A stretch of DNA of 64,000 nt, taken from Candidatus Omnitrophota bacterium (GTDB lineage Bacteria > Omnitrophota > Gorgyraeia > Zapsychrales > Zapsychraceae). Shown here piece by piece: positions 4,756-64,000 of the stretch. Under the pieces are notes generated by a model. The model worked only from the letters and a program-made list of their open reading frames with translations. It was not told the DNA's origin and did no database searches. The position numbers were made by a program, and so were the translations under genes. The stretch lies in assembly GCA_016931055.1 (NCBI GenBank), contig JAFGFL010000089.1:7257-71256 (forward strand). The letters are read 5' to 3'. Numbering within the stretch: the first letter of the stretch is position 1; each line of letters begins with the position of its first letter.

Positions 4756-5510
4756 TTCAGGCTACGGTTTTCAATAGCAAGAATATAATTCTTGTCTTTA
4801 CTCAAAACAAGGATTCTATAATTTTCGGGGATATGCATTAAAGCGTCGTGTTTGTAGAAGGAAACAATGGTGTCATTGGGTGCCCCGTTATCAAGCCGCA
4901 GAGAAATTTCCGGATAAAGGTGGTAAGATAAAATACGATGAAGGAGCATATAAGGATCGTTGTTCAAGTCTAAATCGGTCATCAATTTCCCTTGATGGGT
5001 ACCTGGAAGAAGTTTTTTGCAGGTTTGTGCAAAGTCATATATTCTACCAAAAAGGATTTGATTGCGCTCCTCAACGGTTTCCCCCCCGAAAATATTTTGT
5101 TCATTCTTGAAAAAATCGTATCGGTGAATTTGCTGAATTCCTGATAATAATAATAATCCTGCAATGCAAACTGTCATGACTGTTTCAATGATGGAATCAA
5201 TTTGTTGTTCTTTTGGCAAGCAATGAAAGGCCTTGAGAGCGATTATCGAGCAGGAAACAGATATGGCCAGGGCCCCATAGAACAGTTTAAGGGGATGGAT
5301 GCCGCTGATTGTTATGACGGTGCATAGATTTATATGGGGATGGTATAGACTGTTTTTGATTTGTAAGGCTAAATCTGACAAAGAAGTGTTAAACAATTTT
5401 GAAATCAAAAACATATATGACGCAAGAGAGATCGAAAAAACGAGAATGAGTATAATAAAATGACTGAAGGGTTTACTCGACAAGTTATTATTCGGGCATT
5501 GATCAGCCAT
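4752..5510 (-). CDS. hypothetical membrane protein (N-terminal TM bundle + soluble C-terminal domain)
   Basis: 252 aa ORF with 3-4 TM segments, in an AT-rich stretch. Its stop overlaps the start of the downstream gene. Confidence 0.45.
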   Translation of the reverse strand: MADQCPNNNLSSKPFSHFIILILVFSISLASYMFLISKLFNTSLSDLALQIKNSLYHPHINLCTVITISGIHPLKLFYGALAISVSCSIIALKAFHCLPKEQQIDSIIETVMTVCIAGLLLLSGIQQIHRYDFFKNEQNIFGGETVEERNQILFGRIYDFAQTCKKLLPGTHQGKLMTDLDLNNDPYMLLHRILSYHLYPEISLRLDNGAPNDTIVSFYKHDALMHIPENYRILVLSKDKNYILAIENRSLK

Positions 5511-6875: not shown

Positions 6876-8075
6876 ATGTTCAACACGATTGAAGAAGTTT
6901 TAGAGGACCTGCGCCAAGGCAAAATGATCGTTGTGATGGATGATGAAGGCCGGGAAAATGAAGGTGATTTATTGTGCGCGGCCCAATTTATCACTGCTGA
7001 TAAGGTCAATTTTTTGGCAAAATATGCGCGCGGGTTAATTTGTGTTCCCATGGAAGAATCGAGGCTTGATGAATTAAAGCTTCATGCGATGCGGATTGAT
7101 GTCAACCAGGAGCATTTAAAAGACGATACGGCTTGGGCCATTTCGGTAGACGCGGCTAAGGGGGTCACAACAGGCATTTCGGCGGCTGACCGGGCCCAAA
7201 CGGTAAAAACTCTCATTGATCCGGCATCCAAAACTTCGGACCTTGTTACTCCGGGGCATTTGTTCCCATTGCGGGCCAAAAAGGGAGGCGTCCTGGTGCG
7301 CGCCGGACATACGGAAGCTTCTGTGGATTTGACAAGGTTAGCGGGACTTTATCCGGCTGGAGTGATCTGCGAGATTATGAATGAGGATGGCACGATGGCC
7401 AGGAACCCGGAACTTAAAGCTTTTTCCAAAACGCATCATCTTAAGATCTGCACGATTGACAGTTTGATCGAATATTTGCGCAAATCGGTCAAACTGGTTG
7501 ATCGGATTGTCGAAACGAAATTGCCGACGGAGTTCGGTGAATTTAAAATGATCGCGTACAAATCCAGAATCGATGACCTGGAGCATATCGCATTGGTTAT
7601 GGGAAAGATCGATGCGACTGTTCCCACCCTGGTGAGAGTTCAGTCCGAATGTTTGACGGGAGATGTTTTTAATTCGCTGCGCTGTGACTGCAATGCGCAA
7701 CTGCGGGAATCGATGAAGATGATTTCCGAGAACGGATCGGGCGTTTTTGTTTATATGCGGCAGGAAGGCAGGGGAATTGGGCTGATCAATAAATTGAAAG
7801 CATATAATTTGCAGGATGAAGGGCTTGATACCGTTGAAGCCAATGAGAAGCTGGGATTCTCCCCTGATTTGAGGCACTACGGTTTAGGGGCGCAGATCTT
7901 GGCAGATTTGGGTGTCAAGCAGATCCGCTTGATGACGAATAATCCGAGGAAAATCGTCGGCTTAGACGGGTACGGAATGTCGATGATAGAAAGGGTGCCG
8001 CTAAAGATTCCGCATAACCAGATTAATAAAGGCTATCTTAAGGCGAAGAGAGATAAACTGGGTCACATTTTATAA
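6876..8075 (+). CDS. ribBA: bifunctional 3,4-dihydroxy-2-butanone-4-phosphate synthase / GTP cyclohydrolase II
   Basis: N-terminal DHBP synthase (DDEGRENEGDL, RAGHTEA); C-terminal GCH-II (RVQSECLTGDVF..CDC, QEGRGIGL). Confidence 0.95.
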   Translation: MFNTIEEVLEDLRQGKMIVVMDDEGRENEGDLLCAAQFITADKVNFLAKYARGLICVPMEESRLDELKLHAMRIDVNQEHLKDDTAWAISVDAAKGVTTGISAADRAQTVKTLIDPASKTSDLVTPGHLFPLRAKKGGVLVRAGHTEASVDLTRLAGLYPAGVICEIMNEDGTMARNPELKAFSKTHHLKICTIDSLIEYLRKSVKLVDRIVETKLPTEFGEFKMIAYKSRIDDLEHIALVMGKIDATVPTLVRVQSECLTGDVFNSLRCDCNAQLRESMKMISENGSGVFVYMRQEGRGIGLINKLKAYNLQDEGLDTVEANEKLGFSPDLRHYGLGAQILADLGVKQIRLMTNNPRKIVGLDGYGMSMIERVPLKIPHNQINKGYLKAKRDKLGHIL

Positions 8076-12762: not shown

Positions 12763-12863
12763 ATTGAGGAAATGCCTGGTGAAGCGATTTGAGAATTTGT
12801 GATGAGAATTGACGCGGGCATGCAGGGGTGATAAACTACCACGTTATGTATTGTTAACTTGGA

Positions 12864-12915
12864 TTTGGCTTATACTTATGGACGAACGAAGTTCGGAACA
12901 TAAGTATTAGCCAAA
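12864..12915. repeat. palindromic element (17-bp stem, nested inner hairpin), ACTTATG/CATAAGT family
   Basis: TTTGGCTTATACTTATG-GA-CGAAC-GAA-GTTCG-GAA-CATAAGTATTAGCCAAA, with 1 mismatch in the outer stem. Confidence 0.7.
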
Positions 12916-12919
12916 TTAA

Positions 12920-12948
12920 CCCTCAAGAAAGCTTCACTTTCTTGAGGG
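12920..12948. repeat. perfect 12-bp hairpin
   Basis: CCCTCAAGAAAG-cttca-CTTTCTTGAGGG; no adjacent T-run on the + strand. Confidence 0.6.
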
Positions 12949-13012
12949 TCACGTAAAAAAGATTATTAGTTTGCACCCGAATAGTCAAATGAAAGGGTGC
13001 GTAAAATTCTAA

Positions 13013-13039
13013 CACTTATGTCGCTTCGCTTCATAAGTG
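13013..13039. repeat. palindromic element of the ACTTATG/CATAAGT family (core AGCGAAGCGA on the minus strand)
   Basis: CACTTATG-tcgcttcgctt-CATAAGTG. Confidence 0.65.
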
Positions 13040-13050
13040 CAATAATTTTA

Positions 13051-13091
13051 TGGGGCGTAGCGCGGCTGGCTAGCGCGCAACGTTCGGGACG
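13051..13091 (+). pseudogene. 5' half copy of tRNA-Pro(CGG), truncated inside the 3' anticodon-stem strand
   Basis: 39 of 41 nt match positions 1-41 of the intact tRNA at 13234 (differences at positions 1 and 14), then complete divergence into a 10-bp hairpin GCACCAAATT...AATTTGGTGC (13093-13132). Confidence 0.75.
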
Positions 13092-13233
13092 CAGCACCAA
13101 ATTCCCGATTGGCATAGGAGGAAATTTGGTGCAGTACTTGCTTCTACAAAAAATTTAGAAAAATAAGCATTGAGGCCGTGGGTTTCCTGGCTATATAAAT
13201 TGTTCATAGAAATTTTATCTTTAAGGAGATTGT

Positions 13234-13310
13234 CGGGGCGTAGCGCAGCTGGCTAGCGCGCAACGTTCGGGACGTTGAAGTCGACGGTTCGAATCCGTCC
13301 GCCCCGACCA
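13234..13310 (+). tRNA. tRNA-Pro (anticodon CGG), CCA encoded
   Basis: Manual cloverleaf: acceptor CGGGGCG/CGCCCCG, D stem GCGC/GCGC, anticodon stem CAACG/CGTTG with loop TTCGGGA, T arm GACGG-TTCGAAT-CCGTC, then A-CCA. Confidence 0.95.
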
Positions 13311-32797: not shown

Positions 32798-32880
32798 CAT
32801 GACACAAGACACAAGACACAAGACACAAGAAACGAATGAGGCAGCCCTGCGTCCCGTGTCCTGCGTCTTGTGTCTTTGTG
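32798..32880. repeat. heptad-periodic inverted repeat: (GACACAA)x4, 14-nt spacer, then about 4 complementary heptads
   Basis: GACACAAGACACAAGACACAAGACACAAGAAACG ... CGTCCCGTGTCCTGCGTCTTGTGTCTTTGTG. It starts 4 nt after the ftsW stop and ends 14 nt before the murG ATG. Confidence 0.85.
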
Positions 32881-54802: not shown

Positions 54803-54970
54803 GATTGACGAAAAGGGCAAACTCATCGTAAGGTGGGGACCCCTACGTCGCTCAAATATTTTCATGTTTGAGCTTCGCAGGGCCCTGCGAAGCTCCCAAA
54901 CGTAAGTTTTGGAGCGAAGCAGGGGCAAAGCTACAGGGTCCTGGAAAACAGGATAGCCAGTTGCCGAATC
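54803..54970 (+). promoter_or_regulatory. c-di-GMP-I (GEMM-I)-like riboswitch aptamer, interrupted by an 84-nt insertion
   Basis: 5' half: GAUUGACG-AAAAGGGCAAAC-UCAUC-GUAA-GGUGG-GGAC (to 54840). 3' half: GCAAAGCUA-CAGGG-UCCUG-GAAAA-CAGGA-UAGC-CAGUUGCCGAAUC (from 54925). Both resemble the V. cholerae Vc2 aptamer as recalled, and joined they restore GGGACGCAAAGC. Confidence 0.55.
54841..54924 (+). repeat. 84-nt structured insertion (MITE/REP-like) with imperfect 12-nt terminal inverted repeats
   Basis: The ends CCCTACGTCGCT / AGCGAAGCAGGG pair at 10/12. Inside are GCTCAAA..TTTGAGC, a perfect 26-nt palindrome GAGCTTCGCAGGGCCCTGCGAAGCTC (54870-54895), a GTAA-capped hairpin CCAAAC/GTTTTGG, and GGAGCGAAGC. 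Confidence 0.6.
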
Positions 54971-54985
54971 AATAAATAAGGCAGT

Positions 54986-55019
54986 GCCTATCCAGAATGA
55001 TTTCAGGATAGGCTTTTTT
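54986..55019 (+). terminator. intrinsic terminator (candidate expression platform of the GEMM-like element)
   Basis: GCCTATCC-agaatgatttca-GGATAGGC followed by T6. Confidence 0.7.
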
Positions 55020-55024
55020 AATGA

Positions 55025-55065
55025 GCACGTACTTTATGGAGCGAAGCGAACATAAAGTACTGTGC
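55025..55065. repeat. palindromic element of the ACTTATG/GGAGCGAAGCGAA family
   Basis: GCACGTACTTTATG-GAGCGAAGCGAA-CATAAAGTAC-t-GTGC (14-bp stem with one bulge). Confidence 0.7.
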
Positions 55066-55157
55066 GAATTAATCCCGATCCGCCAAGAGTTTTGGCGGAG
55101 AGGGATCTCAGATCCCTCGTCACCAAAGTTCGTAAGAGGGTGACGCGGGATCAATTC
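55066..55157 (+). ncRNA. candidate structured RNA: compact four-way junction
   Basis: Closing helix GAATTAATCCCG/CGGGATCAATTC (11/12) enclosing three 7-bp hairpins: CCGCCAA/TTGGCGG, AGGGATC/GATCCCT and CGTCACC/GGTGACG, with 0-2 nt linkers. Confidence 0.35.
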
Positions 55158-55162
55158 CGGCA

Positions 55163-55202
55163 GCAACTTATGTTCACTCACTTTGTTCGTTCCATAAGTT
55201 GC
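55163..55202. repeat. palindromic element of the ACTTATG/CATAAGT family
   Basis: GCAACTTATG-(20 nt)-CATAAGTTGC, a perfect 10-bp stem. The loop on the minus strand reads GAACGAACAAAGTGAGTGAA. Confidence 0.65.
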
Positions 55203-55303
55203 GCCGTCATTGAAAATAAACAATATTCTTTTTTATTAGGACTAGTAAATCAAGTATAATAACTAACTATAAAGCAATTGTTATATAACCCTAAAGGGTT
55301 CAT

Positions 55304-55789
55304 ATGAATAAGATATCCCGAAACTCTATTGGATTTACCCTGGTGGAACTCCTGTTGGCAGTTCTGATCCTGGGATTTACTCTTGTCGGACTTTTACAAG
55401 TTTTTATCCGATGTTCCGTTTTCGCGGAAATAGCGCAAAGCAAATCGGCTGTCATGAGCTTGCTGCAAGGAAGGATGGAGGATATCCGGCAACGCGACTA
55501 TGCGGATATTGTCGCCCTTTATGACGCGACGGCCAGCGGAGATCCGGCCGAAACGTTTGACCTTGACCCATTGACTGGGAAGGCCGCTGTTTATATTACC
55601 CAGTTTAATGCGGGTGATGACAATCTGATGCAAATTAAGATCGTCGGCAGTTGGAAAGCTCAGCAGGATCGCATTATGGGAGAAGATCTTGATCTGGATG
55701 GGGTGGAGGATACGGGCGAAGACGTGGATGGCGATGGGGACTTTTCATCGATGGCGATGGTGATCAGTTGTATTGCTGCCAGATATTAG
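55304..55789 (+). CDS. prepilin-type N-terminal cleavage/methylation domain protein (type IV pilin / T2SS pseudopilin-like)
   Basis: IGFTLVELLLAVLILG (G|FTLVE class III signal) and an acidic C-terminal GEDLDLDGVEDTGEDVDGDGD stretch. Confidence 0.8.
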   Translation: MNKISRNSIGFTLVELLLAVLILGFTLVGLLQVFIRCSVFAEIAQSKSAVMSLLQGRMEDIRQRDYADIVALYDATASGDPAETFDLDPLTGKAAVYITQFNAGDDNLMQIKIVGSWKAQQDRIMGEDLDLDGVEDTGEDVDGDGDFSSMAMVISCIAARY

Positions 55790-61930: not shown

Positions 61931-63664
61931 ATGTCCTACATTGTCCTAGCCCGGAAGCACCGACCGCAGACCTTTGATGAGGTCGTCGGCCAGGAACATA
62001 TCACGGAACTTCTGAAGAAAACGATCCAAGCCGACCGCCTGACCCACGCGTATCTTTTTTGCGGGCCGCGCGGGATCGGCAAGACCTCGTGCGCGCGCAT
62101 CCTGGCGAAATCCCTGAATTGTGAGCAAGGGCCCACCTTAAAGCCCTGCGGCAAGTGCCCGGCGTGCGTGGAAATCGCCAAAGGCACGAGTTTCGATGTC
62201 CTTGAGATCGACGGCGCCTCCAACCGCGGCATTGATGAGATCCGCACCCTCAGGGAAAACGTCAAATTCGCGCCCAACTACGGCCGCTATAAGATCTACA
62301 TTGTTGATGAAGTGCACATGCTCACCGCCGAGGCGTTCAACGCGTTATTGAAGACGCTGGAAGAGCCGCCGGAGCATGTCAAGTTTGTCCTGGCGACCAC
62401 CGCGCCCAATAAAGTCCCGGCGACCATCATCTCGCGCTGCCAGCGCTTTGATTTCAAGCGCATCGCGACCAAGACCATCGTCGATGAGCTTTCCAGGATC
62501 AGCAAAAAAGAGAAATTCAAAGTCGATCAGGAGGCGTTGTACGCGATCGGCAAGGCGGCGCAGGGGAGCCTGCGGGACGCCTTAAGCATTCTTGACCAGC
62601 TCAGCGCCTTGAGCGATAAAGGCATTGTCACCGATGACGTGTTTTCCATGTTAGGATTGGTCGAGACGCAGCTTTTGTTTGATCTGGCCGGCGCGTTAGG
62701 TGAAAAAGATTGTTCCCTGTGCCTGGATGTCCTTGAGAAGATCATCGATAAGGGCAAGGACGTCAAACAATTGGCGCGGGACATCACCGAGCACTTCCGT
62801 CACCTGATGGTCATTAAGGTCGGCAGCAAGTCAAAAAACCTTGAGTCTATGGGGAAACTTATTGATTATCCGAATGCCATTAAGGACATGCTTTTCGCCC
62901 AAAGCAAAAAATTTACACTCAAAGAGATCCTAACGGCCATCGACATGTTTATCGAAGCCCAGGATACGGCCCGTGTGGTTGATTCGATCCGCATGCCTCT
63001 TGAAGTGGCGTTTGCGAAATTGACCTATCAGGGGGAGCCTTCCGATATGAAACCGGCTGTTTTGAAAAAGCTGTCCGACCAAGCCGTGGAACAGAAAATG
63101 GAATCTGCGCGCGGATTCTCGCCGGCCGATGTCCTGCGTGACAAAAAAGGGCAAGTGGACATCTCCGGTCCTGGCCGGCCTTATGAGGAAGGGGAAAAGC
63201 AGGAGACAGACGACGAGGAAGAGGAACCTTTGGGGCCGCAGGAGAATGCCGTTGGAGACTTGGATACGTTAGTGGCGCAAGAGCTCGGGCCAGTAAAGGA
63301 GCAGAAAGAAGCCGCTTTGGACCTGCATAAGGTTAAGAAGGTATGGGATGCGCTGACCCATGGGATCAGCCGAGAGCGCATGTCGATCGCGACCTACCTG
63401 CAGAGCGGCGTCCCTTATGACCTGACGGGGGCAAGGTTGACCATCGCTTTTCCTATGGAATGCAAGTTCCAGAAAGAGACCCTGGAAGACGCCCATAACG
63501 TTGAATTTGTCCAGAGAGTATTCTCGGAATTGTTGAAAGCGCCCGTCGTCGTTAAATATCTGATCGTTGAGAATTGTGCACCCCAGGAAGAGACGGAGAA
63601 TGTCAAAGGCGTGCTGGAGACGTTCCAGGGGAAGGTCGTGAACCGCTGGCACGACGAATCTTAG
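61931..63664 (+). CDS. dnaX: DNA polymerase III subunit gamma/tau
   Basis: GPRGIGKTS Walker A, Zn module CGKCPAC, DEVHML and SRCQRF motifs, and an acidic linker region. Confidence 0.95.
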   Translation: MSYIVLARKHRPQTFDEVVGQEHITELLKKTIQADRLTHAYLFCGPRGIGKTSCARILAKSLNCEQGPTLKPCGKCPACVEIAKGTSFDVLEIDGASNRGIDEIRTLRENVKFAPNYGRYKIYIVDEVHMLTAEAFNALLKTLEEPPEHVKFVLATTAPNKVPATIISRCQRFDFKRIATKTIVDELSRISKKEKFKVDQEALYAIGKAAQGSLRDALSILDQLSALSDKGIVTDDVFSMLGLVETQLLFDLAGALGEKDCSLCLDVLEKIIDKGKDVKQLARDITEHFRHLMVIKVGSKSKNLESMGKLIDYPNAIKDMLFAQSKKFTLKEILTAIDMFIEAQDTARVVDSIRMPLEVAFAKLTYQGEPSDMKPAVLKKLSDQAVEQKMESARGFSPADVLRDKKGQVDISGPGRPYEEGEKQETDDEEEEPLGPQENAVGDLDTLVAQELGPVKEQKEAALDLHKVKKVWDALTHGISRERMSIATYLQSGVPYDLTGARLTIAFPMECKFQKETLEDAHNVEFVQRVFSELLKAPVVVKYLIVENCAPQEETENVKGVLETFQGKVVNRWHDES

Positions 63665-63736
63665 ACTTACGGAGCGCCAAAGGCGCGAACGTAAGTCTGT
63701 AGATGTAGTCGCCCCCGGAGCGAAGCGGAGGGGGTG
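63663..63736. repeat. two adjacent palindromes of the GGAGCG...GAA family
   Basis: AGACTTACG-GA-GCGCC-AAA-GGCGC-GAA-CGTAAGTCT (63663-63698) and CGCCCCC-GGAGCGAAGCGGA-GGGGGTG (63710-63736); the first overlaps the dnaX stop codon. Confidence 0.7.
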
Positions 63737-63737
63737 A

Positions 63738-63897
63738 TGAGTAAATGGTTAATGGTGAATAGTAAATAGTGTTATTAGCAGAGTGGGTTTATGGACGACT
63801 GAGATTGCTTGATATTCAATTCACCATTAACTGTTTAAGATTAAGAATATAATTTCTAATAACCCAGACCATTCACCATTAACTATTTACTATTGAC
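63738..63897. repeat. heptad-periodic inverted repeat (TAAATGG/TTAATGG/TGAATAG units), with a third internal copy of a 13-mer
   Basis: The left arm TAAATGGTTAATGGTGAATAG (63742-63762) pairs with CCATTCACCATTAACTATTTA (63869-63889) at 19/21. ATTCACCATTAAC also occurs at 63820-63832. Confidence 0.75.
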
Positions 63898-63903
63898 AAA
63901 GCA

Positions 63904-64000
63904 ATGGCTTACCCTAAATTAATCCAAAATCTCATGGAGCGCCTTGTCAGGCTCCCCGGCATCGGGCAGCGCAGCGCCGAGCGCATGGCGTTCTGGCTGC
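63904..64000 (+). CDS. recR: recombination protein RecR, 5' partial
   Basis: MAYPKLIQNLMERLVRLPGIGQRSAERMAFWL matches the RecR N-terminal HhH; it runs off the window. Confidence 0.85.
   Translation, partial: MAYPKLIQNLMERLVRLPGIGQRSAERMAFWL

Follow-up and report, generated by a model that had tools for sequence, protein, structure and literature searches.

The small palindrome at positions 55029–55060 of the window (here the whole stretch of 64 kb that was analysed) resembles several other hairpins in the same DNA, which raises the question of whether these belong to one family and, if so, what kind of element they represent and whether DNA or RNA is under constraint. A preliminary description had noted hairpins with a stem-GA…GAA-stem architecture, or with the same outer stem word, at 12874–12905, 63665–63696, 55029–55060, 13014–13038 and 55166–55199, all of which are correct to within a base or two. 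A mechanical scan recovers the TTAYG/CRTAA hairpins at 12876, 55034 and 63667 on the + strand and at 55168 on the − strand, and the outer stem word ACTTAYG occurs 14 times (7.7 expected), with eight of the occurrences forming the four facing pairs that had been listed. We confirm these small palindromes to be the core of a previously undescribed structured repeat of ∼68 nt, termed HP here, that occurs across the candidate phylum Omnitrophota. The hairpins of ∼30 nt described earlier are thus real; what had been missed is an outer helix and a second GA/GA loop, together with the arrangement in convergent doublets, the range across the phylum and the connection with GIY-YIG cassettes.

The aligned copies, in which the pairing flanks are conserved, give the consensus TTAAAT-GA-[GCACGYR·ACTTAYG]-GA-[P3 hairpin]-GAA-[CRTAAGT·YRC-T-GTGC]-GA-A·TTTAA-YCCC, with a length of 68 positions (uuuuaAAUGAGgcC…CGAAUUuauCCC). 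A covariance model (R1) was built from HP copies of other genomes and then run on the window, where it finds five copies with E values from 1e-14 to 2e-4, the next match having an E value of 0.45. The model is strand-specific: at 55143–55216 the − strand scores 74.1 bits, the + strand only 11.5. The five copies are arranged as two convergent doublets (55015–55216 and 12857–13052) and one solo HP, and are summarized together with the associated palindromes in Table 1.

Table 1. HP copies and associated palindromes in the 64-kb window, with scores from the covariance model R1
Feature	Position	Strand	Score	Remarks
Degenerate HP	12857–12927	+	36.7 bits, E 8.5e-6	Contains the 12874–12905 hairpin; 18-nt arms
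Central CCC…GGG hairpin of second doublet	12919–12949			ACCCTCAAGAAAG-cttca-CTTTCTTGAGGGT; 13-nt arms 100% complementary; fold agrees
Degenerate HP, partner of 12857–12927	12995–13052	−	30.9 bits, E 1.9e-4	
CCCC…GGGG palindrome, 86 nt	54840–54925			46-nt arms 78% complementary; holds the 10-mer at 54911 and a CGTAAGT word
Full HP	55015–55080	+	75.9 bits, E 1e-14	Contains the 55029–55060 hairpin and the 10-mer at 55038
Central module of doublet 55015–55216	55073–55150			Two CCC…GGG hairpins, 55073–55105 and 55113–55150 (inverted repeats, local hairpins in folds)
Full HP facing the 55015 copy	55143–55216	−	74.1 bits	
Solo HP	63649–63719	+	41.1 bits, E 8.6e-7	Contains the 63663–63698 hairpin
Minimal central-type hairpin	63712–63734	+		CCCCC-GGAGCGAAGCGGA-GGGGG; directly after the solo HP; holds the 10-mer at 63717

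The copy at 55015–55080 consists of a P1 helix TTAAT/ATTAA, a GA/GA loop, a P2 helix GCACGTACTTTATG / CATAAAGTAC-T-GTGC, a GA/GAA loop, a P3 tip GC-GAA-GC and the tail ATCCCG. Its partner has a long P3 (AC-GA-AC-AAA-GT-GA-GT) with a third tandem-GA loop. In the second doublet, the copy at 12857–12927 has an altered outer loop (AAA instead of GAA), and the copy at 12995–13052 includes the 13013–13039 palindrome with the reversed AGCGAAGCGA core. The family had been described as exclusively intergenic, which holds for everything in the window except the solo copy: its 5′ part overlaps the last 16 nt of the ORF at 61931–63664 and has the stop codon TAG (63662–63664) inside P2.

Several other features lie close to these copies or elsewhere in the window. 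Directly after the doublet at 12857–13052, a 41-nt copy (one mismatch) of the 5′ half of tRNA-Pro(CGG) is found at 13053–13095, with the intact tRNA-Pro(CGG) gene at 13234–13307; a similar tRNA 5′ fragment is located at 5290–5355 of locus L094, directly before a GIY-YIG ORF and within a tRNA cluster. Together, these two cases suggest that such elements insert at or rearrange tRNA genes. The AT-rich region 63740–63900, upstream of a recR-like ORF that begins at 63907, contains the repeated or inverted words GGTGAATAGTAAATAG, TTCACCATTAAC and CATTCACCATTAACTATTTACTATTGACA, which may be operator or promoter repeats. At 32806–32876, an inverted repeat of 21–22 nt (86–90% complementary), made up of tandem AAGACAC repeats, lies just upstream of an ORF that starts at 32870.

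The HP is built from three helices (P1–P3) and two conserved purine loops (GA/GA and GA/GAA), together with a bulged T and a YCCC tail. The outer loop has the context 5′-TGAG/CGAA and the inner loop is GGA/GAA, while long versions of P3 carry an extra GA/GA loop in a Y-GA-R context. A T is bulged in 58 of 73 copies, and a G-N(N)-A mini-loop closes the tip. Across the same 73 copies, standard pairs account for 98.4% of cells, compared with 19–32% when the partners are slid by one to three columns; covariation is seen at 14 of the 20 pairs, with changes on both sides in 280 cells, values that none of 500 shuffles reached. These values strongly support the three-helix structure, and RNAalifold agrees on P2 and P3. 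Only three features give the HP its polarity: the unpaired purines, which do not vary, the bulged T and the YCCC tail. In many copies P3 reads exactly GCGAAGC or ACGAAGT; DNA hairpins of unusual stability are classically marked by d(GCGAAGC)-type loops and by tandem sheared G·A pairs in a Y-GA-R context.

The taxonomic range was assessed by scanning one genome from each of 185,579 species for the core pattern ACTTAYGGA-N5–25-GAACRTAAGT, which matches at least 119 loci in more than 100 species. Among the 80 matches listed, 59 are titled Candidatus Omnitrophota or Omnitrophica and one is Ca. Aceula (also Omnitrophota), 14 belong to bins automatically labelled PVC or Planctomycet*, and three to other or unclassified bins (two unclassified bacteria and one labelled Neomarinimicrobiota); the remaining three (two Melainabacteria and one Virgibacillus) lack the flanks and were rejected as chance matches. 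Among the matches listed, exact cores are therefore almost confined to Candidatus Omnitrophota MAGs. A phage origin was also rejected, with all 13 viral-contig matches to the core lacking the flanks and being rejected by the covariance model. A model-based search of related genomes, as had been suggested, yields 145 matches in 685 kb of other Omnitrophota loci. No family in Rfam 15 matches any HP copy, either at the gathering score or at permissive E values, and our search of the literature on Omnitrophota repeats found no relevant paper describing the HP.

Two divergent variants were seen among these loci. At 7313–7390 of L024, AGCTTTTTTG/CAAAAAAGCT replaces ACTTATG/CATAAGT, so that the box itself covaries, and at 924–993 of L075 the GA/GAA loops are replaced by full pairing (ACTTACGGAAATT/AATTTCCGTAAGT). 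Since these variants alter the otherwise invariant box or loops, the family is broader than the search pattern.

The 10-mer GGAGCGAAGC, reported as occurring at least three times in the window, is found exactly three times, always on the + strand (54911, 55038 and 63717), against an expectation of 0.18; one of 100 shuffles reached three copies. Its distribution does not coincide with that of the HP. The copy at 63717 forms the loop of a CCCCC…GGGGG hairpin that follows a family member and is itself no member. The copy at 54911 lies in a c-di-GMP-I-GGC-like aptamer (54807–54969; 27.7 bits, below the gathering score of 59), the first hairpin of which is interrupted by a 97-nt insertion corresponding to the 86-nt palindrome at 54840–54925. 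This insertion had been taken to include a family member; R1 gives no match there even at an E value of 10. The palindrome may instead be related to the inner palindromes of HP doublets, described below. On the 3′ side of the aptamer, a terminator-like hairpin with a T run (∼54980–55020) is followed by the HP doublet and by a pilin-like gene at 55304.

Closely neighbouring HPs show a strongly biased orientation, with 26 convergent, no divergent and nine tandem pairs, and further pairs are visible in the 685-kb scan. The composite order is HP → CCC-arm, loop, arm′-GGG ← HP, in which the spacer between paired HPs is made up of one or two CCC…GGG palindromes. The spacer arms fall into a few classes that are common to different species (CCCTTGACAT, CCCCACACC, CCCAGCACTAATTTT, CCCCCCACCAC, CCCGCCCTTTTG and TTCCGACGAATGTG). 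The HP in L010 and L042 also shows local tandem duplicates. We considered whether a doublet could act as one long hairpin and rejected this because the partners resemble each other no more closely than random pairs do (identity at variable stem columns 0.43, compared with 0.49) and each HP folds alone; doublet folds show local hairpins with z values of −8 to −10, reaching approximately −10 both as DNA and as RNA. The same lack of resemblance between partners argues against recent copying or homogenization, and copies within one genome differ considerably in P2 and P3. A promoter reading of the cccTTGACA that recurs after the HP was likewise rejected, TTGACA being one arm of a central palindrome; by inspection of the spacers, its distance from any −10-like hexamer (P1 included) varies between loci from 17 to ∼39 nt.

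In some doublets the spacer carries a gene. The 264-nt spacer of L027 encodes a 77-aa GIY-YIG protein, a homologue of which occupies the same position in L024. The GIY-YIG ORFs match PF01541 with E values from 1e-11 to 6e-20, and the nearest structures are those of the UPF0213 proteins 1zg2 and 1ywl. Complete nested cases, in which the ORF is located in the central loop between two HPs, are found in L024, L027 and L180, and the ORF abuts an HP in L044 and L147. Of the five GIY-YIG ORFs present in 885 kb, three adjoin HPs or are nested in them, and no mobile-type gene other than the GIY-YIG nuclease is found repeatedly beside HPs. Only two of 80 metagenomic loci that were fetched by nuclease relatives carry HPs (L180, nested, and L147), which indicates that the nuclease family is far broader than the HP family and led us to reject the nuclease as an obligatory partner. 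Most HP copies have no nuclease nearby, the link comprising five loci, and we regard the enzyme as a candidate partner and no more.

It is the central module only that has the organization of a GIY-YIG cassette, with CCCCNCACC-type arms on either side of the ORF in L024, L027 and L180; in the HP doublets of the window, the central palindromes are without an ORF. In 33 of 66 metagenomic loci the ORF lies between the arms of an exact inverted repeat (8 nt or longer), and metagenomic nuclease ORFs are commonly bounded by the same inverted-repeat classes as the HP central arms. Because the same arm classes bound ORFs in unrelated metagenomic loci, the central palindromes are either a UPF0213-type GIY-YIG mini-cassette or, more often, an ORF-less miniature of it, around which the HPs form an Omnitrophota-specific outer layer. 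A related observation was made in the metagenomic loci L133–L212, where genes for UPF0213-type GIY-YIG proteins of ∼80 aa lie between inverted repeats of the CCCCNCACC…GGTGNGGGG type, very often directly beside tRNA genes. This unit looks like a mini-cassette that is widespread across many uncultured bacteria; no description of mobile UPF0213 cassettes was found in the literature searched.

The 5′ end of the HP points outwards and abuts a gene. In 18 of 111 copies, a long upstream ORF on the same strand stops within HP positions 1–10, with 12 of these using a TAA in P1, and in 27 of 111 copies the reverse complement of a Shine–Dalgarno sequence lies 1–3 nt outside the HP. The neighbouring genes are diverse housekeeping genes, among which no recurring transposase family was found. 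Some insertion slots are shared between genomes: rplM–rpsI in L008 and L048, pheS–pheT in L017 and L075, and, for L050, L061 and the window, a slot upstream of pilin genes. At these shared sites the host proteins have an identity of only 49–58%. Conversely, L058, L044 and L042 carry an HP next to orthologues of window genes at which the window has none. From these shared slots and these differences in occupancy, we conclude that the family is old, with some sites kept over time and others subject to gain or loss. The affiliation of the window with Omnitrophota was deduced from the element itself and from the 35–63% identity of its proteins to those in the Omnitrophota loci. The location of HPs inside operons further implies that they are transcribed. 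Two other matches at Omnitrophota loci were seen: a fragment of group II intron D1–D4-3 (45.7 bits) at the edge of L027 (1–53) and a Clostridiales-2-like RNA match below threshold (42.7 compared with 58.6 bits) at 1615–1694 of L090.

Whether such an element is constrained as RNA or as DNA bears directly on its interpretation. As a cis-acting RNA element, the HP could serve as an intercistronic or UTR hairpin, protect against exonucleases, act as a processing site or bind a protein through its tandem G·A loops. The position of copies within conserved operons (rplM–rpsI and pheS–pheT), right after stop codons or before Shine–Dalgarno sequences, agrees with such roles, as do the strong covariation and an RNA fold z value of −10; tandem sheared G·A pairs are, moreover, common protein-binding motifs in RNA. 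The mismatches are less compatible with this. The stems are 96.6% Watson–Crick with 12 G·T and 10 A·C mismatches when cells outside the box fixed by the search pattern are counted, and ∼95.5% Watson–Crick with 35 G·T, 35 A·C and 34 other mismatches in a model-based alignment of 118 copies, and thus show no excess of G·U. Such a scarcity would also follow if sense and antisense transcripts both had to fold. Copies occur in both the sense (22) and the antisense (35) direction relative to co-directional flanking genes with no shift in mismatch type (Fisher p = 0.73), and many transcripts would consequently carry UUC/UC loops rather than GA/GAA. Among the P3 tetraloops, 30 of 37 are GNNA, with only eight GNRA and 22 GNYA, and the triloops are mostly GNA or ANA. 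A K-turn consists of a 3-nt bulge followed by tandem sheared G·A/A·G pairs between a C helix and an NC helix. The internal loops of the HP, a 2 × 2 GA/GA loop with a T-A closing pair and a 2 × 3 GA/GAA loop, have no 3-nt bulge and do not fit this geometry, and the K-turn-like structure proposed earlier was abandoned. An intrinsic terminator was also rejected, the basal helix being A/T-rich (TTAAAT/ATTTAA) and followed by an AYCCC tail, with neither a GC-rich stem nor a U run. With no Rfam match in addition, a primarily RNA-based element appears doubtful to us. The absence of wobble tolerance and of a GNRA preference, together with loops and mismatches as in compact DNA hairpins, favours a constraint that acts on a DNA hairpin read by a protein on one strand; HPs may also matter in mRNA.

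Among DNA elements, the closest class is REP/BIME/REPIN. REPs measure 20–40 bp and carry a terminal unpaired tag, GTAG or CGTC (Di Nocera et al., 2013; PMC3733652). The HP shares with them the high copy number as an extragenic palindrome (five copies in 64 kb) and the pairing in opposite orientation, and lacks both the tag and the short length. That the HP is a classical REP or REPIN mobilized by a RAYT (a Y1 HUH enzyme) encoded elsewhere in the genome would account for its intergenic location, multiple copies, inverted doublets and long vertical persistence, all described hallmarks of that class; a bulged base in an imperfect hairpin also resembles the substrates of Y1 transposases. We nevertheless consider this very unlikely given the differences in tag and size, the inability of doublet partners to pair with each other, the recurrence of only the GIY-YIG nuclease as a mobile-type gene and the outcome of a tblastn search of low power with sequences of IS200 TnpA and E. 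coli RayT, which gave no match in 1.2 Mb of loci. An ordinary MITE, i.e. a recent deletion derivative of an insertion sequence spread by cut-and-paste transposition, is scarcely credible. Its small size, inverted ends, presence/absence polymorphism and local tandem duplicates (L010 and L042) would be expected of a MITE. The shared end words of 21 doublets, however, do not exceed those of a mismatched-partner control and thus reveal no target-site duplications, no transposase gene was found in or near HPs, the copies within a genome are divergent with compensatory changes, and the core is kept across more than 100 species with proteins that are ∼50% identical. The original label of a REP/MITE-like dispersed family was right in kind, as the HP is a multi-copy, intergenic and covarying palindrome, but it is not a classical MITE.

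Taking these results together, we favour, with somewhat more confidence than doubt, the interpretation of the HP as a new REP/BIME-like structured DNA repeat that is specific to and widespread in Omnitrophota and that frames GIY-YIG-type palindromic cassettes, with a putative protein partner and function. In this view the HP is a rod in which tandem G·A mismatches separate three short Watson–Crick helices, features that make for a compact and stable single-stranded DNA hairpin. The unpaired purines, the bulged T and the ACTTAYG box would then be what a conserved protein recognizes when it reads the top-strand hairpin in extruded or single-stranded form; the GIY-YIG nuclease or another host factor is a candidate. 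By analogy with the action of RAYT on REP/REPIN, such a protein would maintain or spread HPs. Once transcribed, HPs probably act secondarily as intercistronic hairpins, by protecting 3′ ends where they follow a stop codon and by forming a 5′ stem beside the Shine–Dalgarno sequence, and it may be owing to these roles that the host tolerates or retains them. That the same 68-nt architecture and core are kept across more than 100 species, in which orthologues are about half identical, implies that a trans-acting partner is conserved as well and that the association with the host genome is a long-lived one. A more specific version, which we put forward as possible but unlikely, is that the HP represents a phylum-wide, vertically persistent analogue of the REPIN–RAYT system in which a 68-nt tandem sheared G·A single-stranded DNA hairpin is recognized by a UPF0213-type GIY-YIG protein of ∼80 aa nested in a minority of the elements. 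If true, nuclease-maintained structured DNA elements of a new class would have colonized core operons throughout Omnitrophota and been kept there.

The HP also has practical uses. It can serve as a sequence marker for Omnitrophota contigs in metagenomes, and its fusion to stop codons and ribosome-binding sites needs to be taken into account in gene annotation. UPF0213-type GIY-YIG proteins are abundant and have no known function, and the nested arrangement makes a role testable.

The comparison with REP/BIME sequences (PMC3733652) is close in several respects. Both are multi-copy intergenic imperfect palindromes with compensatory changes, and in both the units commonly occur, as in BIMEs, as pairs of opposite orientation joined by a short linker. 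Both lie mostly a short distance downstream of coding regions, where the flanking genes are co-directional or convergent, and are transcribed within operons. The HP differs in having three helices rather than the single stem of a REP, in that its conserved unpaired residues are internal tandem GA loops, and in keeping its sequence across a phylum; the conservation of REPs is typically limited to one species or genus. With the REPIN–RAYT system (Bertels and Rainey; PMC3116915, bioRxiv 10.1101/2021.07.10.451892) it shares inverted doublets, long vertical persistence, diversity that accumulates within lineages and possibly a dedicated nuclease partner. Unlike in REPINs, HP partners do not form one long hairpin, and in place of a flanked Y1 transposase the candidate partner is a UPF0213-type GIY-YIG protein nested in some elements. 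Integron attC sites are similar in design only, as folded imperfect palindromes with basal boxes, an unpaired central spacer, extrahelical bases that confer polarity and a variable terminal structure. The HP consensus has no R′′/R′ (RYYYAAC/GTTRRRY) boxes and its copies are dispersed convergent pairs in core operons, not unidirectional cassette arrays, with no integrase seen; identity with attC was rejected on these grounds. Finally, when compared by sequence only, the HP resembles d(GCGAAGC)-type mini-hairpins in its G-N(N)-A loops closed on a C-G pair and in its internal loops with a TGAG/CGAA context. The d(GCGAAGC) and Y-GA-R motifs are models of physical chemistry, whereas the HP combines such motifs in a conserved 68-nt genomic element and would thus provide a natural example of stable DNA hairpins in which this chemistry is used at a genomic scale.
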